A stretch of 20,307 nt of DNA from Candidatus Micrarchaeota archaeon (GTDB taxonomy: Archaea; Micrarchaeota; Micrarchaeia; Anstonellales; Bilamarchaeaceae). Positions 3,453 through 20,307 of this stretch are shown here, in pieces (positions within the stretch are counted from its first letter, which is position 1; each line of letters starts with the position of its first letter). A program made the position numbers and the translations under genes. Where the stretch lies: the NCBI GenBank assembly GCA_964651995.1, contig CAZYZZ010000009.1, forward strand, positions 1-20,307, in the 5' to 3' direction. The notes below the pieces were generated by a model. That model ran no database searches and was not told the DNA's origin. It worked only from the letters and a program-made list of their open reading frames with translations.

Positions 3453-3472
3453 AGTTTAACTGATTCTATGTG

Positions 3473-5578
3473 ATGAACTCCCATAAAACCATTGTTACTC
3501 TACTATTATTGATCGGAATAGTATCTGCATTTAATCCAACAGATTATTTTTATTCTAGTGAATCTGGTATAACCATTTCCTATAATAATTTTACTCTGAA
3601 TTCTGTCGACTATTCAGTCGTTTCATTTGATGGGCAGGAAACATTCCTTCTCAAGGAAGGCGAGCCTGTTTCTGATAAAAATGAAATAGAGTCTGTCATG
3701 TATGACTACTACATGAGGGAGTACTACCCTTCTGATGAAGACATAGATGAGCTAGAATCCCTTGTCCAGAAATTCAATGACAGCAGAAACGATGGTTATG
3801 ACTGGAAGAACAAAGAGGAATATCTCTGCAGAAACGATGTTCTCTTTGCCAATGGGAAGATTACGGTTTCAGGAGAGCCTGTAACCTGTATTGATGAGGA
3901 GACATGCCAGCAGAATGCAATGCTTTTGTATGCTGCCTATGGAGAAGGCCTTGGACTTGGTTCTGTAGATCCGCTCTATGAGGCGATCTATGATTTTGCA
4001 CCATCCAGTTTTGCAATGGATGATATCCTGGGCAATTATTCTGCCAAGCTCAGCAGCCTGAATGAGGATTCTCTTCTTGATACGATCAGCTACATCGAAG
4101 GCACAACAGATGACCTTCGGGATTATTCAGGAGACATCGAATCAACCATCTTCAGAACTCCAAGAAGAGATGACCAGGAAGACAAGGATGACTGCTATCT
4201 CAAATGCTTTGCGATATGCCCCTCATTTGACCTTGACCAGGGTGCGATTACAGAGATAGAGGATGCTGTAAGCGCTCTCTCTACAAAAATCGAGCCATTA
4301 TCCGGCTACGAGGAAACATCATCCTCAATTTTCAACCAGTCAAGATCAAGGATCAATTATTCAACTACTGAATCTGCAGCATCAGAATACACTTCCAAAT
4401 ATGATTCCCTGAATTCTTCTGCCGAACTTGCAGTTTCCCTTGGAGATGAGGCAACCCTTCATGTTATAGATTCCACTCTTGAGCAGGACCTGGATGAGCT
4501 GAAGACACTGAAAGTCAGCATTCCAAATGACATTGAAGTTCGCGACTTTTCCACTACTGAAGGAGATCTTGATGACTATGAGGAGCTTATCGGAAAGGTC
4601 CACAATTCATCAACAGTGCTCCTTGACCAGTACAACAAAACCAGGAATTCAAAGAACATGCTAAATTCACTGATTCTTGTTCTTGATACCAAGGATCTTG
4701 ATCCTGTTTCACTGAGCAGCCTGGAGCTTCTAAAGAACGAGACTGATGATCTGGATGCGCAGTTCCATGATGGAATAACGCTTGAGGATCTTGTCTTGCT
4801 TGAAGAAGAATACGAGGAGCTGAATGCTGATGGGCAGATGCTTCTCAAAAAAGAGAGCACAATGCCAGCAACAAAGGTTCTCCTGCTCTTCCGCGGCTTT
4901 GCCAAAAACGTAAACCAGGGCATTGCAAGCGTTGCAGAAGATACTGATGTACTTTCCAAGGAGGAGATTTCTGAAAACCAGTACCTTGCCCTTGGAGGAT
5001 TCTCAACAATACTATTCCTTTCAATCGGCTCTCTGATGCTTCTGGCATTCCTCTACATCCTTGCAACCTCAAGATTCCTTATTCCAAAGACCAACCATAT
5101 TCTTGCAGCTGCATTTGTATCTGTGATTGTCCTTCTGCTTGGATTCAGTGCATTTACATTCCTGTTCATGAGCAAGACATCTTCAGATGCAACTCTAACT
5201 GAGTTCCTCACTGACTTTGAAGAGCGAAACGACACTGCAATTTTCGTTGACCTTCAGGAAACATCATACTCTGATGCTGTTGCAATGAACTCATGTGCAG
5301 GCAATCTTGCAAGTACATTCACAGACAAGAACAAGAGCTGGACACTCTACACCGTAGACTCATCAAAATGTGTTGTTACAGACTCAAATGGCCAGAACAA
5401 GTCGCTTACAGTAAGTGAATGCGAGGACCAGTATGTTGCAGAGCCATCATCATTTGAGCTTGGATATTCATCATCAAATGAACCTCCGAAATTCTCGATA
5501 ATTTATGAAAATAAAGCTAAGATCAGGGCAAACATGGATTATTATGATTCATGCCCGATAGCTTCTCTCTTCAGTTGA
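3473..5578 (+). CDS. Large acidic surface/membrane protein: N-terminal signal or anchor, ~480-aa acidic ectodomain, two TM helices, C-terminal 4-Cys domain; function unknown
   Basis: The track ORF starts at GTG 3470; ATG 3473 is more likely. Hydrophobic N-terminus TIVTLLLLIGIVSAF. Two TM segments (LALGGFSTILFLSIGSLMLLAFLYILA and ILAAAFVSVIVLLLGFSAFTFLFM). I count roughly a dozen N-x-S/T sequons. The C-terminal domain is paralogous to the ectodomain of the next gene. Confidence 0.75.
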   Translation: MNSHKTIVTLLLLIGIVSAFNPTDYFYSSESGITISYNNFTLNSVDYSVVSFDGQETFLLKEGEPVSDKNEIESVMYDYYMREYYPSDEDIDELESLVQKFNDSRNDGYDWKNKEEYLCRNDVLFANGKITVSGEPVTCIDEETCQQNAMLLYAAYGEGLGLGSVDPLYEAIYDFAPSSFAMDDILGNYSAKLSSLNEDSLLDTISYIEGTTDDLRDYSGDIESTIFRTPRRDDQEDKDDCYLKCFAICPSFDLDQGAITEIEDAVSALSTKIEPLSGYEETSSSIFNQSRSRINYSTTESAASEYTSKYDSLNSSAELAVSLGDEATLHVIDSTLEQDLDELKTLKVSIPNDIEVRDFSTTEGDLDDYEELIGKVHNSSTVLLDQYNKTRNSKNMLNSLILVLDTKDLDPVSLSSLELLKNETDDLDAQFHDGITLEDLVLLEEEYEELNADGQMLLKKESTMPATKVLLLFRGFAKNVNQGIASVAEDTDVLSKEEISENQYLALGGFSTILFLSIGSLMLLAFLYILATSRFLIPKTNHILAAAFVSVIVLLLGFSAFTFLFMSKTSSDATLTEFLTDFEERNDTAIFVDLQETSYSDAVAMNSCAGNLASTFTDKNKSWTLYTVDSSKCVVTDSNGQNKSLTVSECEDQYVAEPSSFELGYSSSNEPPKFSIIYENKAKIRANMDYYDSCPIASLFS

Positions 5579-5583
5579 TTTTC

Positions 5584-6201
5584 ATGGCAAAAAAGAAAAC
5601 AAGGAAGAAGAAAACAGCAAAGAAGAAAGAGCCGAAAAAGGCTCCGGAGCCTAAAGCTGTCAAAAAAGAAGTAGTCAATGAAAAGGAGCCTGCACTCCAG
5701 GAGCCTATGGAAAAAAAAGAGGATGCTCCTGAAAAGGGAACCGGCCTCAAGACAATTGTATTTGCAATACTGTTTGTTGCAGTTGCAACTCTTGCTGTTT
5801 ATGTTCTATTTATCCAGCCAACTGAAAAGTTTGTTCCAGGAACCGAAGTTGATTCAGAGACTTTTCTGCAGATTTTTGATTCTACTGAAAATGTCTATAT
5901 CTTCATGGATGTTCGCGGAGTTACTGATCCGGATGTCAAGCACAACATCCTTCAGTGCGGTGTTGACTTTGCAGCAAGCAGCGGCATGGGTCCAAAGAAT
6001 GCAACCTACTTCTCTCTGGGGGATGAAGGCTGCATAACTCCAAGAGGATCTTCAGAAGATTCCTATTGTTTCAATGAACTTAGAAAAGGAGTGGCGATCT
6101 ATATCCACGAAGGATCAGCAACTTCCTATCATAGCAATGGTATTGTGGTCGGAGTAGGCTCGGACTATTCACTGGGAACTTGCGGCATCCACAGGTCTTA
6201 G
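5584..6201 (+). CDS. Single-pass membrane protein: Lys-rich disordered N-terminal tail, TM helix, 4-Cys ectodomain paralogous to the C-terminus of the upstream protein
   Basis: The track ORF begins at ATG 5551 inside the upstream gene. ATG 5584 (MAKKKTRKKKTAKKKEPKK...), 5 nt after the upstream stop, is my preferred start, but this is uncertain. TM segment LKTIVFAILFVAVATLAVYVLFI. The positive-inside rule places the C-terminal Cys domain outside the cell. Confidence 0.65.
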   Translation: MAKKKTRKKKTAKKKEPKKAPEPKAVKKEVVNEKEPALQEPMEKKEDAPEKGTGLKTIVFAILFVAVATLAVYVLFIQPTEKFVPGTEVDSETFLQIFDSTENVYIFMDVRGVTDPDVKHNILQCGVDFAASSGMGPKNATYFSLGDEGCITPRGSSEDSYCFNELRKGVAIYIHEGSATSYHSNGIVVGVGSDYSLGTCGIHRS

Positions 6202-6678
6202 CCTGATGGATGTTTCAAAATTCCTGTTTCTTACTGCTTCTATATCAAGGTCAGTGTGATCGATTCTTGTCTCCTGGCCAAACATTACTGTCTGATAGCG
6301 CACCTGTCTGTCTTCCATAAAGAAGTCGAATTCCTGCTTTAGTACAATGCCGTGCGCGCCAATATCAGCAATGCTAACTTCCATTGTTGCGTTTTTTTCA
6401 GGCATGAATCTCATGATAAACAGTATGTCCCCGATGTTCACATCTACCTCGCATTCTGTTTTTCCTATGCATCTGTTGAACTTTCCGGAAATTACAGTGA
6501 GGCTTGTTATCTCCCCGTGTTTCTGGGCATCTGTTGCTTTTTGCAACTGCTCAACAATCGGCACTTGTGCTGGAAGAGGAGTCTGAGCCTGTCCGCATGA
6601 AGCGAGAAGTAGTCCGGTGAGAGCAGCTGCTGCGGCTTTTGGTGCTATGCGATTTCTTAATCTTTGTTTAGAAATCAT
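6169..6678 (-). CDS. Putative secreted lipoprotein (lipobox LLASC), function unknown
   Basis: N-terminus MISKQRLRNRIAPKAAAAALTGLLLAS-CGQ has a basic n-region, a hydrophobic core and an L-A-S-C lipobox. TTTATAA box lies 27 nt upstream of the ATG. The 3' end overlaps the convergent gene by 33 bp. Confidence 0.6.
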   Translation of the reverse strand: MISKQRLRNRIAPKAAAAALTGLLLASCGQAQTPLPAQVPIVEQLQKATDAQKHGEITSLTVISGKFNRCIGKTECEVDVNIGDILFIMRFMPEKNATMEVSIADIGAHGIVLKQEFDFFMEDRQVRYQTVMFGQETRIDHTDLDIEAVRNRNFETSIRLRPVDAASSQ

Positions 6679-7947: not shown

Positions 7948-8511
7948 TTATTTCTTCACTTCAACTCTTCCATCTTCAATATAGTACTTCATCTCTACGA
8001 TTTTTAACTTGCCTTCTTTCTCAAGATTCCGGACTATCTCGCTTCTTCTTCGGATCTCCTCACTTGCAACGTTCATGTTGAAGACAACAGATTCCTCGAC
8101 TTTGTCTGCTCCTCCTTTTTCAACAGCAGGCCTTATCTTCTCAAGTATTGCTGCGATATTCGGTGGACATGCTGCTCCTTCACAGGCAGCGGTTACTGCT
8201 CCGCACTTCTCATGTCCTAGTATGACCAGCAGGGGAGTCTTGAGATGCGAAACTCCATATTCTATTGATCCGAGCGCGAGTGTGTCAACACAGTGCCCAG
8301 CGTTCATGACTACGAAAATCTCTCCGAGGTTTACATCAAATACGAATTCCGGAACCACTCTTGAATCCGAGCATCCGATAACTGTTGCAAATGGGTGCTG
8401 ACCATCCTTGTTTGCCTCCCTGGCACTCCCTACGTCTTTTTCAGGCAGCTTGCCGCTCATATATCTCTTATTTCCCTCTAACAATTTGTTTATTGCACTC
8501 TCTGCATCCAT
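7948..8511 (-). CDS. Beta-class carbonic anhydrase
   Basis: Zinc and dyad motifs VIGCSDSRV and VILGHEKCGAV, plus FVVMNAGH. The track ORF starts at TTG 8529. ATG 8511 (MDAESAINKLLEGNKRY) is preceded by AGGTGA 8 nt upstream and is preferred. Confidence 0.9.
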   Translation of the reverse strand: MDAESAINKLLEGNKRYMSGKLPEKDVGSAREANKDGQHPFATVIGCSDSRVVPEFVFDVNLGEIFVVMNAGHCVDTLALGSIEYGVSHLKTPLLVILGHEKCGAVTAACEGAACPPNIAAILEKIRPAVEKGGADKVEESVVFNMNVASEEIRRRSEIVRNLEKEGKLKIVEMKYYIEDGRVEVKK

Positions 8512-8558
8512 AATTAATTCACCTGTCAAATATTCTGGAATTAATCTCAGCAGATATG

Positions 8559-8565
8559 TTTAAAA
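8559..8565 (+). promoter_or_regulatory. TATA box (TTTAAAA) 27 nt upstream of ATG 8589
   Basis: Supports ATG 8589 rather than the track start at 8556, because 8556 lies within the TATA element itself. Confidence 0.45.
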
Positions 8566-8588
8566 CCCCTATTTACCATATTAATATC

Positions 8589-9689
8589 ATGTCTAGCCAC
8601 AGTATAACACAAAAGGGTAAACCCAGGGAGGACGAGACAAAGAAAGTTTTGCACATGCCTTTGAGCAGCTCACGCACACTTGAGCTTAAGGAAAAGCACA
8701 GAGCAGGTGGACAAGGCGCATTGAATGCAAGAGAATCACGGGAGCTGATGCTCGGCGGAAACAAAAATCACCAGGAGAGAGTTCTTGCATCCGGCACTAC
8801 CCCCAAATCACGATACGAAAAGATCACTGCCAGGGAAGCTGATTACCTGACAGTTGCATGTTCTGATGCAAGAAACCAGACACTTGATTCTGAAGATGAC
8901 AAATTAGTAGGACTCCAGATCAGGGTTGCAGGAAATGTTGTTCCTGAGAGCGGAGTTTCAAGAGATGAAATAAAAGAAGCCGCACAAGGCCTCAAAGAAG
9001 GCGGCCTTGTTTTGGTTACTGCCCACATCAACTGCGGTGCAGTTGCAGAGCATGTAAAATGGGAAGCAGGAGGATGCTGCGATACTGGAAGCGAGCCTCT
9101 AAACAAGCTGCTTCATGCTGTAAAAGGTGAAAATCCAAAAGAAAACGCACTTGCGCAGCTAGATCATCTTCGCGATATAGTTGGCGATGACAAGTCTGTT
9201 GCTGCAGTCATCTATGACTGGGAAACAGGATCATATGAAGTTCTGAGCCCTGAGTCCTGTGAGCTTGTTGAGCTGCTCAAATCCAAATGGGAAATGGCAC
9301 ACAAAAGAGCAGATGATGGTACTTTGGGAAAAAGCCTTAGCGCAACTCAAAAACCACATGCAATAGTAATCGGAAGCAATGATATGCCATTTAGCGTTGA
9401 TACTGTATTTGATTCTGAGCAGAACGCAATCTTCTCAACAACCGGCTCCAGCGGAGGGCTTGACAATTACGATGAGGCTTCAATCCTTTATGCAGTGGAG
9501 CACCTTGGTGTGCAGCACATTGCATTTGTTGCACCGGAAAATGATTCAACAGGTGCGATGTTTGAAAAATGGGAAGCTGACATCAGGACAATGGGTGCTG
9601 TTGCAGAAAAGCTTGATTCAGGTGCATTGAAAATCACAAGACTTGGATATGATCTCTCCAGCGGCGCATGCAGGGACATGCAGGAATAG
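8589..9689 (+). CDS. Tandem (fused) beta-carbonic-anhydrase-like protein: intact N-terminal CA domain plus a degenerate C-terminal pseudo-CA domain
   Basis: Domain 1 has VACSDARN, IRVAGNVV, VTAHINCGAV and AAVIYDWETGSYEVL. Domain 2 has the same fold signature but the ligand positions are replaced: IVIGSNDMP in place of CSDSR, FVAPENDSTGA in place of GHxxCGA, and ITRLGYDLSSGA. The start is uncertain (8556, 8589 or later). Confidence 0.75.
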   Translation: MSSHSITQKGKPREDETKKVLHMPLSSSRTLELKEKHRAGGQGALNARESRELMLGGNKNHQERVLASGTTPKSRYEKITAREADYLTVACSDARNQTLDSEDDKLVGLQIRVAGNVVPESGVSRDEIKEAAQGLKEGGLVLVTAHINCGAVAEHVKWEAGGCCDTGSEPLNKLLHAVKGENPKENALAQLDHLRDIVGDDKSVAAVIYDWETGSYEVLSPESCELVELLKSKWEMAHKRADDGTLGKSLSATQKPHAIVIGSNDMPFSVDTVFDSEQNAIFSTTGSSGGLDNYDEASILYAVEHLGVQHIAFVAPENDSTGAMFEKWEADIRTMGAVAEKLDSGALKITRLGYDLSSGACRDMQE

Positions 9690-10659: not shown

Positions 10660-12381
10660 ATGTGCGGGATTATCGGATATATAGGATCTAATGCAGCTTC
10701 CCAAATCCTTACCGAAGGGCTCAGGAGGCTTGAGTACCGGGGATATGATTCTGTTGGAATAGCAGTTCTCGGCAACTCCGGTCTTGAGGTGCGAAAGGAC
10801 ATCGGGATGGTTGATGAAGTTTCAGCAGCTCTTCAGTTTACCAGCGTCAATGGGCATATCGGTCTTGGACACACAAGATGGGCGACGCATGGATCTGTCT
10901 GCAGGGAAAACTCCCATCCCCATTTTGATTCCAGCAAAAAAATAGTTGCAGCTCACAATGGAGTCATTGAAAATTTTTCAAAACTCAGGGAGGATCTTAT
11001 CTCAAAGGGTCACAAATTCGTATCTGATACTGATTCAGAGCTCATACCTCATCTTATCGAGGAGAATTCAAAGGATTCTAGTCTTCTGAAAGCATTTACA
11101 AAATCCGTCCTGCAGATACAGGGCTCATATGCAATAGTCGCACTAAGCTCTAGTGATAGTGAGGAGCGGCTTTTTTTAGCCAGGAAAAACAGCCCTCTTA
11201 TCATCGGAGTCGGGCAGGGAGAGATGTTTTGCGCTTCTGATATTTCTGCAATGCTCAAGCATACAAAGACATTTGTTCCTCTTGAGGAAGGGGATATTGC
11301 AATCCTCACAAAAACAGGCTACAAGGTCTATTCGTCTGATGGTGCAGAAGTCCAAAGAAAACAGATAACAGTTGACTGGAGCGAGTCTCTTGCGCAGAAA
11401 GGAGGATATCCTCATTTCATGCTAAAGGAGATCCATGACCAGAAGCACTTTATCAACGAGAGCCTTGCAACAGATGCTGGCCAGGCAAAAAAAATGATTA
11501 ATGACTATGACAAGATCCATATCCTTGGATGCGGAACTTCATACCATGCTGCCCTGATCCTGGCGCATCTTCTTGCGGAAAAAAATATCCAGGCATTTAT
11601 TGCAAGTGATTATCCTTTTGTTGCAAGGCCTGATGAAAAGACACTGGTAATTGCAATAAGCCAGAGCGGCGAAACCGCTGACATTCTGCAGGCTCTTCGA
11701 TTTGCAGAGAATTCTCCAAAAATAGCAATAACAAACACGGTCGAATCAACAATAACAAGGCTTTGTGATCTTACTGTCTATCTTAATTCAGGCCCTGAAA
11801 TCGGGGTTGCTGCAACCAAGACATTCACTTCCCAGCTTGCAGTGATGTTCAAGCTTGCCATGGAAAAGCCAGAAGGATTATCCTCTATAATCGAGCAGAT
11901 GATTGAGAAAGAAAATGAGGTCAAGGCAATTGCAGCAAAGCTTGCAGGCTCTGAGCATGCATTCTTTTTGGCGCGCGGGATCAATGTTCCGATTGCCCAG
12001 GAAGGCTCGCTTAAGTTCAAGGAAATTACCTATATTCATTCCGAGGCATATCCCGGAGGAGAGCTTAAGCACGGAACACTGAGCCTTATTACTGAAGGGA
12101 CTCCTGTTATCGCCCTTGCCCCAAAAGACGGGACTGCAACGAAGCTTCTGGGGAACATAAAAGAGGCAAAAGCACGAGGCGCCCTTGTAATCAGCCTGAC
12201 CAATGATGATAATATAAGAAATGAGAGCGACTTTTCAATATTGCTTCCGGATGTTGATCTGCATCTTTATCCATTTGCACTGATTGTTCCTCTGCAGCTG
12301 CTTGCCTATCACGTAAGTGTTCTTCGCGGCATAAATCCTGACCGGCCAAGAAACCTGGCAAAATCAGTTACTGTAGAATAG
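10660..12381 (+). CDS. glmS: Glutamine--fructose-6-phosphate aminotransferase (isomerizing)
   Basis: N-terminal MCGIIGYIG (Ntn Cys), GHTRWATHG, two SIS domains (ISQSGETAD), and the C-terminal ...NLAKSVTVE typical of GlmS. Confidence 0.95.
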   Translation: MCGIIGYIGSNAASQILTEGLRRLEYRGYDSVGIAVLGNSGLEVRKDIGMVDEVSAALQFTSVNGHIGLGHTRWATHGSVCRENSHPHFDSSKKIVAAHNGVIENFSKLREDLISKGHKFVSDTDSELIPHLIEENSKDSSLLKAFTKSVLQIQGSYAIVALSSSDSEERLFLARKNSPLIIGVGQGEMFCASDISAMLKHTKTFVPLEEGDIAILTKTGYKVYSSDGAEVQRKQITVDWSESLAQKGGYPHFMLKEIHDQKHFINESLATDAGQAKKMINDYDKIHILGCGTSYHAALILAHLLAEKNIQAFIASDYPFVARPDEKTLVIAISQSGETADILQALRFAENSPKIAITNTVESTITRLCDLTVYLNSGPEIGVAATKTFTSQLAVMFKLAMEKPEGLSSIIEQMIEKENEVKAIAAKLAGSEHAFFLARGINVPIAQEGSLKFKEITYIHSEAYPGGELKHGTLSLITEGTPVIALAPKDGTATKLLGNIKEAKARGALVISLTNDDNIRNESDFSILLPDVDLHLYPFALIVPLQLLAYHVSVLRGINPDRPRNLAKSVTVE

Positions 12382-17241: not shown

Positions 17242-17263
17242 TTCTTTGCTTCCTATTTCCCTT

Positions 17264-18247
17264 ATGTCCAAGACCGAATCAAGAAAAAAAGATCATGTTG
17301 AGCTTGTAATCGAGAAGGGAGCGCAATATGAAAAAACAACTGGTTTTGAAAAACTGGAATTTGTTCACAATGCACTTCCAGAAGTTTCCCTTGAAAAAAT
17401 AGACCTTTCTGTGAAATTTCTGGGTTATCAACTGAAATACCCCCTGGTCATAACAGGGATGACCGGCGGCTATTCTGATGCAACTGCAATAAACAAGGGA
17501 CTTGCAGAAGCTGCTCAAAGGCACGGTCTTGCATTTGGTCTTGGCTCGCAACGTGCAATGATCGAAAAGCCTGAGCTTGCAAAAACATACCTGGTCAGGG
17601 ATGTTGCTCCTGATATTCCTGTTATCTCAAATATCGGCGCATATCAGCTCAAGAAATACTCATTTGAGCAGATAGAGTCCCTGGTTGATTCAGTCGAGGC
17701 AGATGCTCTTGCCGTTCATCTAAATCCCCTTCAGGAGGTTATCCAGGGCGAGGGCGATACTGATTTTACAGGCATCGTTGATGCGATTTCAAAAACTGCG
17801 GAAAAGCTTGATGTTCCTGTGATTGCAAAGGAGACAGGAGCTGGAATCAGCCAGAATGTTGCCTTGAAGCTTAAATCTGCAGGAGTAAAGTATATTGACC
17901 TTGAAGGAGCAGGAGGAACGTCGTGGAGCAAGGTGGAGTATCTTCGCTCTGCTGCTACTGCCGGCTTTGAAAACTGGGGCATTCCAACTCTCCATTCCAT
18001 TCTCGAATGCAGGGGAATCCTTCCGATGATTGCAAGCGGAGGCATCCGCTCTGGCATTGATGCTGCAAAAGCAATTGCACTTGGCGCAGAGCTCTCTGGG
18101 GCTGCCTATCCGTTCATAAAGGCATTTACAGAAGGCTCTATCGAAGAATATGTCACTACATTCACTTCGCAGATGCGGATATGCGCTTTCCTCACAGGAT
18201 CTGCAGATTATGCTGCCCTTCGGACTGCAAGAACAGCATTTATCTGA
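17264..18247 (+). CDS. fni: Type 2 (FMN-dependent) isopentenyl-diphosphate delta-isomerase
   Basis: SRKKDHVEL near the N-terminus, ITGMTGG, LGSQR, AKETGAG, and LEGAGGTSW...ASGGIRSG, characteristic of IDI-2 TIM-barrel enzymes. Confidence 0.9.
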   Translation: MSKTESRKKDHVELVIEKGAQYEKTTGFEKLEFVHNALPEVSLEKIDLSVKFLGYQLKYPLVITGMTGGYSDATAINKGLAEAAQRHGLAFGLGSQRAMIEKPELAKTYLVRDVAPDIPVISNIGAYQLKKYSFEQIESLVDSVEADALAVHLNPLQEVIQGEGDTDFTGIVDAISKTAEKLDVPVIAKETGAGISQNVALKLKSAGVKYIDLEGAGGTSWSKVEYLRSAATAGFENWGIPTLHSILECRGILPMIASGGIRSGIDAAKAIALGAELSGAAYPFIKAFTEGSIEEYVTTFTSQMRICAFLTGSADYAALRTARTAFI

Positions 18248-18411
18248 TTTCCATTATCCTGTGGCTATAAGTGGAAAAACATATATTTAAAAGCTGTTTA
18301 TACCATAATTATATTATGTCCCCCACAGCAAGAGTAGACTCCGTACTGCAAAAATCATCCAGTCTCAGCTGCAGAATTCACAAAATCCCGTTCACATTAG
18401 TGTTACAAAAG

Positions 18412-18419
18412 TTTAAAAA
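18412..18419 (+). promoter_or_regulatory. TATA box (TTTAAAAA) 28 nt upstream of the second in-frame ATG (18443) of the RSH-like gene
   Basis: It is only about 16 nt from ATG 18431, so a leaderless start at 18443 (MSLANKLPSG) is plausible. A second TTTAAAA lies further upstream at 18286..18292. Confidence 0.35.
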
Positions 18420-18430
18420 CAGGTTTTTAC

Positions 18431-20026
18431 ATGAATATAGACATGTCCCTAGCTAACAAACTACCCAGTGGTAGAAATGTTCCAAAGCAGCTTCATGCAC
18501 AAATGGCTAGATGGGCAGCTACTTATCAAAAATTCGGTGGCCAGGATGCAATCCCGCATATCCTGAGGGTTCTTGATTCATCAATTGCACACAACATGGT
18601 CGAGCCGGTAAAGATCGGTTGTACGAGAAAAGATCCAAAACAGCTCAACCTTCAGCTTGCAAGTGTCATACAGGCGCACGTATTTCGAAAAAGACATACT
18701 AACAAGGCAGATTTTCCAACAGAAGATTTCGAACGCTTTCCATATGTTATGGAGGGTTTCAATACTTTTAATGACCTTAGGGAAAATGATCTTTCTGCTC
18801 AGGACCCGGAGACATACCGGAGACTTTTGGCAGAGCCTTCCCTTGGACTGCTTGCCAGAATGATTGATCTGCCTCAATATGGAAGTAGTATTTCTCATAA
18901 TTCAGAGGGCGAGCTCATGGGCCTCAATCCAGACCGATTCTATGTGTTTGACGGATCCCGCGGCAAGTCAGAATACCAGCTGATCGGAGAAGCTGCAAAA
19001 AGGATTTATTCTCCCCTTGCTGATCTGCTTGGATATAGGACTCTTGCAGGTCAGCTCTACCAGCTCTATTATCGTAATGTTGATGTGGAGACCTATCAAG
19101 CAGTTGTCAAGGCTCTCTTTTATCTGAAATACCGGATTGCAGCTACCAGGGCTCTTTCAAAGCAAGCTGTTGAAATGCTTTCTGCAAAGCTGGATCAGGA
19201 AGGATATAAATATTCCATCAAGCACCGCTCAGCAAAGCATCCTGGGAAAGTTATGGAAAAGGCAGACAGATATTCCCGCACAAGCAGCAGAACTATCCCA
19301 GATATTGTTTCAAACCTCAATGACCTGGTTGCGTTTACTGTGGTGCTCAGATCAAGGAATGGCAAACTAATTACTCAAAACGATGTCCATGAATTTGAGA
19401 ATGTTGCAAGAATGGTCGTTGAGACAGTAGCTTCACTTCATCCGATCTCGCGCGTCTCAAAAGCAAACCTGTTCACTGACATGGTAACCCATCCAAAGCC
19501 CAATGGATACCAGTCATTCCATGTTGATATGCCATTAGAGGGACCTGAAGTAGTCAACCTTGAAGTAATTGTAAGGAATTGGAGGATGGAAAAGTATGCT
19601 GAAACAGGAGGAGCTGCACATTATCTGTATAAGGGCGGAGGGGATCTTGCAAGATCTGTTTCGTCCGCATACCGTGGCATCATGGAGGCAATGAGCGGCA
19701 AATCCAAGGTTGTCTCAGATTCAATAAACCAGAGATTTATCACTGTCAATATAGAAGGACAGAAAACACGCCAGAGGATAGTTGACCAGCGTGCCTGTGT
19801 TGGTGAGGCTCTCATATGTGCAGATGTTGATCTTTCAAACGGCCTTGCCCTAAATCCACAGGTTTCCCTTCTCACTCCAATAAAAGGAATCGATACACTG
19901 AATCTTGAGCATGTACCGGTCTCAGGGCAGATGCTCTCAAGGCCCATACTGCAGCTGCTACTGGAAAAAGCAGTAAGTCCGCATGCACGGGAAAAACTTA
20001 GAGCATACCTCAAGCAATGCAGCTGA
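18431..20026 (+). CDS. RelA/SpoT-homologue (RSH)-like nucleotide pyrophosphokinase: degenerate HD domain + conserved synthetase domain + TGS-like C-terminal domain
   Basis: From memory of Rel/RelA sequences, these segments align:
- RIYSPLADLLGYRTLAGQLYQLYYR with eIYAPLAhRLGi..iKwELEDL.FR.
- IKHRSAKHPGKVMEK...LNDLVAFTVVL with GRpKh.YSI.rKM...i.Dl.aiRvi.
- THPKPNGYQSFHVDM....NLEVIVRNWRMEKYAETGGAAHYLYKGG with aPK.NGYQSlHT.v....iEiQIRT..MH..AE.GvAAHW.YK.
The position of the HD motif reads IQAHVFRK, so the His-Asp dyad is not intact. Confidence 0.8.
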   Translation: MNIDMSLANKLPSGRNVPKQLHAQMARWAATYQKFGGQDAIPHILRVLDSSIAHNMVEPVKIGCTRKDPKQLNLQLASVIQAHVFRKRHTNKADFPTEDFERFPYVMEGFNTFNDLRENDLSAQDPETYRRLLAEPSLGLLARMIDLPQYGSSISHNSEGELMGLNPDRFYVFDGSRGKSEYQLIGEAAKRIYSPLADLLGYRTLAGQLYQLYYRNVDVETYQAVVKALFYLKYRIAATRALSKQAVEMLSAKLDQEGYKYSIKHRSAKHPGKVMEKADRYSRTSSRTIPDIVSNLNDLVAFTVVLRSRNGKLITQNDVHEFENVARMVVETVASLHPISRVSKANLFTDMVTHPKPNGYQSFHVDMPLEGPEVVNLEVIVRNWRMEKYAETGGAAHYLYKGGGDLARSVSSAYRGIMEAMSGKSKVVSDSINQRFITVNIEGQKTRQRIVDQRACVGEALICADVDLSNGLALNPQVSLLTPIKGIDTLNLEHVPVSGQMLSRPILQLLLEKAVSPHAREKLRAYLKQCS

Positions 20027-20028
20027 TC

Positions 20029-20307
20029 TTATATCTGTGCGAAGTCTGTGAGCTTCTTGACTACATTGAGGACCATGTTAGTGTTTGTTTTTTCAACACC
20101 TTTAATTGCAAGAATTTTCTTTACCAGTCCAGAGAGCTCCCCCCTGCTTTTGCACATCAAAATCGCGGTTGCATCATATTGTCCGGTGGTATCATAAACT
20201 GAGGCAACTCCCTTTAGCCTGCTTATCCTGTCCTGGATGCTGAGAAGGTCACCTCTCATTGAAATCTGGACTATTGCCATGAATTCAAAGCCCAGCTGAA
20301 GGTAATC
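20029..20307 (-). CDS. Lrp/AsnC-family regulator, partial (only the C-terminal ligand-binding RAM domain is in the window; the N-terminal HTH lies beyond the right edge)
   Basis: The reading frame stays open upstream of the track ATG 20280 to the window end (..DYLQLGFEF-MAIVQISMRGD...). The beta-alpha-beta-beta-alpha-beta RAM-domain pattern (V.i.......L....I..l..V..vy.ttG.yD....v) is present. Confidence 0.8.
   Translation of the reverse strand, partial: DYLQLGFEFMAIVQISMRGDLLSIQDRISRLKGVASVYDTTGQYDATAILMCKSRGELSGLVKKILAIKGVEKTNTNMVLNVVKKLTDFAQI

Follow-up and report, generated by a model that had tools for sequence, protein, structure and literature searches.

The window considered here is the whole stretch of 20,307 nucleotides that was analysed (contig CAZYZZ010000009.1 of assembly GCA_964651995.1, from a Candidatus Micrarchaeota archaeon), and we will focus on one gene at its 3' end, which encodes a protein of 531 amino acids (aa) related to the RelA/SpoT homologues (RSH). 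This gene is found in the company of genes for an aRF1/eRF1-type release factor, ribosomal protein L11, a DUF63 membrane protein, a polyprenyl synthetase, GlmS, two beta-carbonic-anhydrase-like proteins, an ArsR-HTH/S-layer-like protein and a type-2 isopentenyl-diphosphate isomerase-like flavin mononucleotide (FMN) enzyme. The preliminary description of the locus, made from the letters alone, read the product as a protein with the domain order of a long RSH that resides in an archaeal genome. That observation is confirmed, and its central reading is supported by the analysis reported here. The parts of the gene and its immediate neighbours are collected in Table 1.

Table 1. Parts of the RSH gene (open reading frame 18431..20026, + strand, ATG start, stop codon included) and its direct neighbours, in window coordinates.
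Feature	Position	Strand	Basis
fni, type-2 isopentenyl-diphosphate isomerase-like FMN enzyme	17246..18247	+	Pfam FMN_dh
Upstream intergenic region, AT-rich and bearing TATA-like boxes; presumed promoter and leader	18248..18430	+	Sequence reading
N-terminal helical domain, aa 1-180; HD-like by predicted fold, metal dyad lost	18431..18970	+	Foldseek, residue counts
Helical linker, aa 181-256, equivalent to the long-RSH central helix bundle; contains YSPLADLLGY	18971..19198	+	phmmer, profile and hhalign alignments; model helices
RelA_SpoT synthetase (SYNTH) domain, aa 257-405	19199..19645	+	Pfam match at aa 268-403, residue conservation
Inter-domain linker, aa 406-432, poorly conserved	19646..19726	+	pLDDT below 50 at 416-431; mean pairwise identity 27%
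Beta-grasp domain, aa 433-495; TGS position and fold, TGS sequence motif absent	19727..19915	+	Isolated model, hhalign collinearity
Two C-terminal helices, aa 496-531, equivalent to the start of the helical domain after TGS in long RSHs	19916..20023	+	hhalign, model
Lrp/AsnC-family regulator, convergent; 3' part only, cut by the window end	20029..20307	-	Pfam AsnC_trans_reg

All the sequence blocks quoted in the preliminary description are found in the protein, namely PKPNGYQSFH (aa 355-364), LEVIVRN (aa 377-383), AETGGAAHYLYKGG (aa 390-403), the linker block YSPLADLLGY (aa 193-202) and, in the N-terminal domain, IQAHVFRK (aa 80-87) and LARMIDL (aa 141-147). The Pfam model RelA_SpoT (PF04607) is the sole significant match, at E 7.3e-14 and with 52.5 bits against a gathering score of 27, and it is matched by 34 of the 34 family members as well. 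Among the sequences of the PDB, the best phmmer match is the RelA of E. coli (E 9e-9). With a profile of the family this match reaches E 6e-16, against 2e-5 or weaker for the small alarmone synthetases (SAS) and their toxic counterparts (toxSAS). In both the phmmer and the profile alignments, aa 183-277 of the linker region pair with residues 172-262 of RelA, so that YSPLADLLGY faces IYAPLANRLGI, as expected of the linker block that had been proposed. When the family is aligned by hhalign to eight bacterial long RSHs (probability 99.7%, E 1.5e-26), its positions 182-537 are collinear with long-RSH positions 175-504, which extends from the linker helix bundle, by way of SYNTH and the TGS position, to the first post-TGS helix; at the C-terminal helices, SRPILQLL...AREKLRAYLK is paired with SRDWL...ARAKVRAWFN. 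These results support the view that the protein belongs to the RSH superfamily and has a long RSH, not a small alarmone synthetase, as its ancestor. It does not pass for a canonical long RSH: the HD and TGS domains go undetected, the C-terminal regulatory domains are absent, and the NCBIfam model spoT_relA (TIGR00691) is matched over its positions 135-346 only, with 62.3 bits, far under the cut-off of 499.2. Since these long-RSH thresholds fail and two conserved active-site positions are changed, we class the protein in a new subfamily.

This subfamily is not limited to the window. A search of 5.8 billion proteins retrieved 38 relatives of 403-572 aa, which are 30-79% identical over most of their length and all carry PF04607 only; a gap then separates them from the bacterial long RSHs, which appear at E about 1e-8 and whose nearest representatives are 24-30% identical to the window protein. 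The source name is 'Candidatus Micrarchaeota archaeon' for P0003, P0013, P0027 and P0029 and 'Candidatus ainarchaeum sp.' for P0036, an orthologue devoid of TGS, while the more distant relatives belong, where they are named, to the Bilamarchaeaceae (class Micrarchaeia) or to the Micrarchaeota. A hidden Markov model search of 1.84 billion cluster representatives gave 48 proteins at E<=1e-30, about 16 of them of the core type (~530 aa), and a second tier of ~450 aa whose match is limited to profile positions ~15-425, which means that the C-terminal domain is lacking there. The second-tier proteins (P0060-P0107) share the N-terminal domain and the clade motif KHxGKxMRK; they keep the ExQ Gln and often the Arg discussed below, and their AAHxxYK block is turned into AAHYYY[IL]GG, with loss of the conserved Lys. 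Annotation pipelines already call some members 'ppGpp synthetase/RelA/SpoT-type nucleotidyltransferase', and one is labelled 'bifunctional (p)ppGpp synthetase/hydrolase', a label that is probably wrong. The pattern KxNGYQS[FYL]H, for its part, is generic to all RSHs, and a genome scan with it was filled with bacterial Rel/RelA/SpoT loci (L007-L086).

The catalytic core of the synthetase domain is preserved throughout the family. With residue roles taken from the RelP of S. aureus (SaRelP, PMC5794853) and counts made over 34 family members, the two Mg2+ ligands D298 (SaRelP D107) and E378 (E174) are present in 34/34, and the catalytic Asp and Glu are thus retained as the preliminary description had said. 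The same holds for the adenine-stacking R266 (R78), for K269 (K80), K277 (K88) and R280 (R91), which correspond to the contacts with the ATP phosphates, and for H397 (H190), which corresponds to the ribose contact. The acceptor-stacking Tyr of the G-loop, Y360 (Y151), is found in 33/34. The G-loop itself, PKPNGYQSFH, fits PKxNGYxSxH up to its last residue, H364, and K356 and G359 are invariant in it (34/34), as is K401 further on. Three other key positions are changed. The second adenine-stacking Arg, five residues past the catalytic Asp (R112), is replaced by T303, a Thr in 31/34; the Ser that contacts the alpha-phosphate (S84) is replaced by K273 (31 Lys, 3 Arg); and the Gln of ExQIRT is replaced by I380 (29 Ile, 4 Leu, 1 Gln), with RT reading RN, although P0010 keeps the Gln. 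As to spacing, the intervals from Lys to Lys (+8) and from Lys to Arg (+3) are those of SaRelP, and one additional residue lies between R266 and K269.

These changes are a property of the clade. In a motif survey of 194 retrieved proteins, ~80 of which are canonical RSHs, the latter show D..A.R[IV] and E.QIRT almost without exception, against DLVAFTV and E.I[IV]RN in the core family, and the whole clade shares the derived motif R-x-x-K-[HS]-x-G-K-x-M-x-K. Ahead of the G-loop, long RSHs carry a motif of either the EXDD or the RXKD type; the window protein has xFTD. The conserved catalytic residues, considered together with Thr303, Ile380 and Lys273, indicate an intact catalytic machinery and a donor pocket remodelled in a clade-specific way. 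The earlier claim that the hallmarks are retained is therefore correct for the core, but it had overlooked these three substitutions, which leave the question of the substrate more open than it seemed.

The predicted structure connects the protein to the long RSHs over a greater length than its sequence does. The AlphaFold2 model, built on the family alignment, has a mean pLDDT (predicted local distance difference test) of 85.5 and a pTM (predicted template modelling score) of 0.76, and only aa 1-6 and 416-431 fall below 50. The linker is modelled as helices at aa 181-199, 203-216 and 219-256, and the C-terminal helices lie at aa 504-513 and 517-530. In a Foldseek search of the PDB, the top matches are full-length SpoT (7QPR, E 8e-13), B. 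subtilis Rel (6YXA) and ribosome-bound RelA (5IQR), over 536-550 columns, and the predicted fold is that of Rel/RelA/SpoT and not another nucleotidyltransferase fold. Crystal fragments made of HD and SYNTH (316-350 residues) align over 375-416 columns, with TM-scores normalised on the target (TMt) of up to 0.69. This value is that of 6S2U (341 residues), for which the score normalised on the 531 residues of the query (TMq) is 0.47; both are higher than SYNTH and linker alone could give, so part of the N-terminal domain must superpose on HD, and an HD fold packed against SYNTH is indeed seen in the model. With small alarmone synthetases the aligned part of the model shrinks to ~210 columns, and E is 1e-5 or weaker; Tas1 (6OX6) is a weak structural match (E 1.3e-2).

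The two flanking domains are much less tractable by sequence. HD and HD_4 (PF01966, PF13328) give no Pfam match at E<=10, either with the whole query or with its isolated N-terminus; Pfam finds nothing in aa 1-190 or in aa 431-531; and no Pfam HD or TGS is found at E<=1 in any of the 34 members, nor in ten second-tier proteins. In isolated hhalign tests, the N-terminus reaches a probability of 7% against HD, through the linker helix only, and the C-terminus 1.2% against TGS (E 0.045). Since these isolated profile tests are non-significant, we do not claim sequence homology for the flanks, and their assignment as HD-like and TGS-like, by position and predicted fold, seems reasonable. Modelled alone, the C-terminal 104 residues (pLDDT 83.7) are predicted to form a beta-beta-alpha-beta-beta grasp followed by two helices. 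The PDB matches of this isolated model are the beta-grasps of ubiquitin, SUMO and FERM-F1, with the TGS domain of ThrRS also listed. Its highest TMq values (0.45-0.52) are obtained for the TGS region of SpoT/RelA, with comparable scores for ubiquitin-like domains; for the TGS-plus-helix region of SpoT, TMq is 0.50-0.52 with a root-mean-square deviation of 4.2-4.7 A over 103-109 columns. The protein then ends at aa 531 after the two-helix stub: the zinc-finger/CC and ACT/RRM domains are missing, as had been noticed from the start, and PF19296, PF13291 and PF01842, present in the bacterial matches, are not found in it. The TGS-like C-terminus proposed earlier is, in the predicted fold, a beta-grasp at a position collinear with TGS, and it escapes Pfam and isolated hhalign.

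The same can be said of the HD-colinear N-terminus, which stands by predicted fold but remained undetected by any of the sequence methods used. In the register given by a low-confidence collinear alignment and the fold match, the position of the His-Asp dyad is occupied by H83 (30/34) followed by Val, Leu, Ile, Pro, Ser or Gly, and never by Asp. If that register is accepted, H43 (30/34) would be the first His of the HD domain, and LARMIDL would take the place of LADRLHN, with the invariant R143 at or next to the position of the metal-binding Asp. The domain has an invariant set of its own, made of G109, D120, Y129, R143 and an LRENDL motif. The best reading of the model and of these residues is that the N-terminal domain is hydrolase-dead and, as in RelA, retained to serve in structure or regulation.

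The gene belongs to a conserved chromosomal block. The identical protein (P0001) is found on six contigs from at least four different ENA/JGI samples, always between fni and Lrp/AsnC, and GC content is flat at 0.44-0.46 over the 3' third of the window, junctions included. The same gene with the same neighbours on six contigs excludes chimerism for practical purposes. The block reads PQQ-propeller (-), L11 (-), flavin adenine dinucleotide/nicotinamide adenine dinucleotide (FAD/NAD) oxidoreductase (-), 245-aa membrane protein (+), an optional HEAT protein (+), fni (+), RSH (+), Lrp/AsnC (-) and glnA (+). At least five further genomes have an orthologue in this place, some of these orthologues being on contigs of 125-260 kb, and synteny holds down to 37% identity. 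This is illustrated by P0002 (78% identity, 215 kb contig), P0027 (46%, GCA_043821365.1), P0035 (39%, a 429-aa orthologue without the C-terminal domain, 260 kb contig), P0033 (36-37%, local and alignment-wide, on a locus from a 37,912-bp NCBI record) and P0093 (a 664-aa relative, 68.6 kb contig). On the contigs examined fni lies directly 5' of the RSH gene; on some of them the two are separated by a small additional gene or by an RSH paralogue in tandem. The Lrp/AsnC gene is followed by glnA in the window genome and in 5/6 other genomes examined, and in that of P0010 a glucokinase gene lies downstream instead.

All the domains, the hydrolase-like one included, are under purifying selection. 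Identity was taken as the pairwise mean over 31 members of >=500 aa, and the ratio of non-synonymous to synonymous substitution rates (dN/dS) was taken against the P0002 orthologue, with dS about 1. The values are 51% and 0.15 for the N-terminal domain, 45% and 0.23 for the linker helices, 53% and 0.10 for SYNTH, 27% and 0.10 for the inter-domain linker, and 37% and 0.11 for the C-terminal region; dN/dS thus spans 0.10-0.23, and the N-terminal domain is about as constrained as SYNTH. Synteny and purifying selection together point to an old, vertically inherited chromosomal gene and not to a mobile toxin or a recent transfer. Any horizontal acquisition is ancient and was followed by vertical descent. 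No defence system is matched by the PADLOC models. Nor is there a bicistronic antitoxin or small alarmone hydrolase partner of the toxSAS type: the neighbours are fni, across a gap of 183 bp in the window genome, and the convergent Lrp/AsnC, in conserved order.

The borders of the gene deserve a few details. Its TGA (20024-20026) and the TAA of the Lrp/AsnC gene on the reverse strand (20029-20031) are indeed 2 bp apart, as first described. On the longer contigs L002/L003 the full regulator has 151 aa, with HTH_AsnC and AsnC_trans_reg. A frameshift in it, considered on account of calls of 106 + 64 aa instead of 151 aa, was rejected: the DNA is identical across contigs, and the calls thus reflect a gene-caller difference only. 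On the 5' side, the promoter and leader role of the intergenic region is suggested by its sequence. Its TATA-like boxes (~18276-18320) lie about 110-150 nt 5' of the ATG, which would imply a long leader. A 61-aa ORF starting on GTG (18271-18456, +), probably spurious, crosses this gap and runs into the beginning of the RSH gene. No tRNA gene or Rfam family was found in the whole window, the region 5' of the RSH gene included.

Several observations concern the paralogues and the other genes of the neighbourhood. On the contig of P0002 (L005:6660-7970, +) and at L006:2122-3462, a second RelA_SpoT gene of 436-446 aa stands in tandem between fni and the RSH orthologue. Its product shows only 23% identity with the window protein across 433 aa, shares the N-terminal domain, lacks the C-terminal beta-grasp and has the aberrant motifs PKQVTNYQSVH, DWSGLTV and GEACHDGYK. 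P0093 (L092:6001-7995, +) has a longer N-terminal region, and a gene with a PPDK_N domain is inserted between it and Lrp/AsnC. Genes of glutamine and nitrogen metabolism are found around the RSH gene: a divergent glutamine synthetase after Lrp/AsnC, past the 3' end of the window (L001:11599-14407), a glutaminase ~6 kb beyond, and GlmS upstream in the window (10660-12381). A functional coupling between the RSH and the Lrp/AsnC-glnA neighbourhood is, at this stage, speculation. Further upstream, the two divergent genes of the beta-carbonic-anhydrase family lie at 7948-8529 (-) and 8556-9689 (+); the product of the latter has 377 aa with a partial Pro_CA match at aa 97-189, and may be a fusion or a degenerate copy. 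The ORFs 3470-5578 (+), 5551-6201 (+) and 6169-6678 (-), of 702, 216 and 169 aa, match no Pfam family at E<=0.001.

An intact HD_4 hydrolase gene is found in one Micrarchaeota relative. In the Micrarchaeota assembly GCA_043827025.1, which also encodes P0093, a stand-alone HD_4 protein of 385 aa (L092:1553-2710, -; E 6.5e-14) has an intact HP...LLHDVIED and is located between L11 and the FAD/NAD oxidoreductase of the conserved block. It has a C-terminal extension of ~170 aa, and the next-best matches to it are HD domains from the long RSHs of bacteria, Chloroflexota among them. Its presence agrees with alarmone turnover in some part of the lineage. On L089, the interval between L11 and the oxidoreductase holds a gene of 338 aa; this was weighed as a possible divergent hydrolase and rejected, its matches being weak and methyltransferase-like, with no HD.

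The reading that we favour, and that we hold to be a little more probable than not, is that of a hydrolase-dead RelA-like pyrophosphokinase making (p)ppGpp. The protein would be a lineage-specific descendant of a long RSH, vertically inherited in the Micrarchaeia (DPANN archaea), and would comprise, from N to C terminus, a conserved helical domain of HD fold without the His-Asp dyad, the long-RSH linker, the synthetase, a TGS-like beta-grasp and a two-helix stub. It would be monofunctional and RelA-like, transferring pyrophosphate from ATP to the 3'-OH of GDP or GTP to yield (p)ppGpp, and no hydrolysis would be expected from it. In bacterial RelA, the zinc-finger/CC and ACT/RRM domains anchor the protein to the ribosome; here, the N-terminal and beta-grasp domains would probably serve as regulatory or ligand-binding modules and not for ribosome docking. 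Family membership, fold, residue conservation, synteny and purifying selection are results of the analysis; from them we infer the catalytic activity, the guanine acceptor, the hydrolase-dead N-terminus and any regulatory link to Lrp/AsnC-glnA. Several points weigh against this reading. Three positions that hardly vary in characterised RSHs are changed across the core family (Thr303 in 31/34, Ile380 in 29/34, and Lys273), and donor binding or chemistry may differ on that account. No clear sequence signature separates the tRNA-modifying RSHs from the alarmone synthetases (10.1101/2021.04.30.441581), so acceptor specificity, and guanine specificity with it, cannot be read from sequence. HD and TGS homology appears at the level of predicted fold only, and the isolated C-terminal model has no PDB match at E<=1e-3, all its matches being at E >= 1.3e-3. 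With the L092 protein as the query, tblastn gave no HD_4-like partner in the window or at the remaining core-family loci that were retrieved, and that protein is rare: it has only four close relatives in 5.8 billion proteins and is thus not a general partner.

The rival explanations differ in which of these points they take up. The protein could be an active pyrophosphokinase with another acceptor or product, acting on the tRNA 3'-CCA end, as FaRel2, PhRel2 and CapRel do, or making (pp)pApp, as do Tas1 and FaRel, in either case in the service of housekeeping regulation rather than toxicity. The TGS-like domain could present the CCA end, an end with which the TGS of RelA has an established role, and the nucleotide pocket is remodelled clade-wide (Arg to T303, Gln to I380, Ser to K273). 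The acceptor-stacking Tyr is needed in the tRNA-modifying enzymes too, and those enzymes have no clear sequence signature of their own among RSHs (10.1101/2021.04.30.441581). On the other side, the G-loop PKxNGYQSxH has the canonical form of bacterial long RSHs, which are also closer to the family than SAS and toxSAS by profile (E 6e-16 against 2e-5 or weaker) and by aligned length (540 against 210 columns), and the gene has housekeeping synteny, no antitoxin-like bicistronic partner and no PADLOC match. The makers of (pp)pApp, for their part, have strongly differential motifs (10.1101/2021.04.30.441581). We leave this explanation a minor share of the probability. A little less probable again is a catalytically inactive pseudo-enzyme, in which the RSH scaffold would have been kept as a nucleotide-, tRNA- or protein-binding regulator. 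One adenine-stacking Arg and the ExQ Gln are gone, the Gln being labelled 'catalytic' in one docking study, and RelA and SpoT are already cases where inactive RSH domains persist as regulatory modules (PMC8012599). Against it, D298, E378, R266, K269, K277, R280, H397 and K401 are kept in 34/34 and Y360 in 33/34 down to 30% identity, which is hard to explain without catalysis, and SYNTH has the lowest dN/dS of the domains (0.10). Moreover, the Gln is retained in P0010 and in the second-tier paralogues, which often have the Arg as well; this suggests tolerated variation rather than decay.

The last explanation, a bacterial gene brought in by mis-assembly, binning contamination or a very recent transfer, is highly improbable. 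It could invoke the overwhelmingly bacterial distribution of RSH enzymes and the fact that, outside the family, bacterial long RSHs come closest. But these are only 24-30% identical; the named family members are Micrarchaeota or Bilamarchaeaceae; and the archaeal neighbours recur on the six contigs and, with orthologues in the corresponding place, in five or more further genomes, with no break in GC at the junctions. This explanation, one form of which, a chimeric contig, had been raised in the preliminary description itself, is for practical purposes already refuted.

Compared with known systems, the protein preferred here as a RelA-like synthetase has the domain order of the bacterial long RSHs (E. 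coli RelA, 5IQR; B. subtilis Rel, 6YXA; A. baumannii SpoT, 7QPR; T. thermophilus Rel, 6S2U), which are its best profile and structural matches. It keeps their linker block, G-loop, catalytic Asp and Glu and AAHxxYK, and with RelA it shares an HD domain devoid of the catalytic dyad. It differs from them by being about 200 residues shorter, without zinc-finger/CC or ACT/RRM; by HD and TGS regions that Pfam and NCBIfam do not recognise; by the R-x-x-K spacing of the clade, the Lys273, Thr303 and Ile380 substitutions and the change of RT to RN; by a pre-G-loop motif that is neither EXDD nor RXKD; and by its archaeal host. The SAS RelP and RelQ (6EWZ, 5DEC, 6FGK) have the same SYNTH fold and catalytic residue set, but they are tetrameric, single-domain proteins of ~210-250 aa, without the linker helix bundle and both flanking domains. 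The window protein, with 531 aa, flanking domains and a linker, is thus not a single SYNTH domain of ~200-250 aa devoid of an HD-side linker. The toxSAS (FaRel2, PhRel2, CapRel, FaRel, Tas1) likewise have a synthetase fold with divergent active sites, but they are small, adjacent to an antitoxin or immunity gene and often mobile, in contrast to this single 531-aa gene in housekeeping synteny.

In the Archaea, the survey of Atkinson et al. 2011 (PMC3153485) reported sporadic SAS and small alarmone hydrolases in a few Euryarchaeota only, and the lack of long RSHs was held to be an archaeal trait. In 2021, RelA/SpoT was reported in 69% of Diapherotrites, 42% of Woesearchaeota, 21% of Pacearchaeota and 19% of Nanoarchaeota, with acquisition from Bacteria predicted (PMC8407392). 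These proteins resemble ours in having DPANN hosts and an RSH annotation read as bacterial in origin, but that report is limited to eggNOG annotation, without domain, active-site or synteny analysis, and does not list Micrarchaeota. Full-text searches for Micrarchaeota with ppGpp or RelA, or for DPANN with alarmone, returned nothing beyond PMC8407392, and the strings Micrarchaeota, Archaea, Woesearchaeota and Diapherotrites do not occur in the accessible portion of the supplementary tables of the 2019 RSH classification preprint. The earlier description of an undescribed component therefore stands in that Micrarchaeota are unlisted and the family is uncharacterised, but not in full, as pipelines label members RelA/SpoT and other DPANN were reported. 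What is new is the conserved Micrarchaeia family of long-RSH type; the superfamily, the pipeline labels and the annotations in other DPANN were already known.

The existence of this family contradicts the textbook absence of long RSHs from archaea. To our knowledge, there has never been a detection of (p)ppGpp in Archaea, and the use of alarmones by archaea becomes bench-testable on one defined protein. The protein is also a natural minimal Rel, made of an HD-fold domain, SYNTH and a beta-grasp, in which RSH regulation can be studied without ribosome-binding domains. It is conceivable, if unlikely, that the Micrarchaeia, and perhaps sister DPANN lineages, run an alarmone or tRNA-pyrophosphorylation signalling on a remodelled long RSH. 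The former HD domain would then be a new ligand sensor, the altered pocket would change the donor or the product, and the output would be tied to nitrogen through Lrp/AsnC-glnA, a scheme to which, as a whole, we give equally limited credence. If it were true, a stringent-like response would have evolved independently of ribosome docking.

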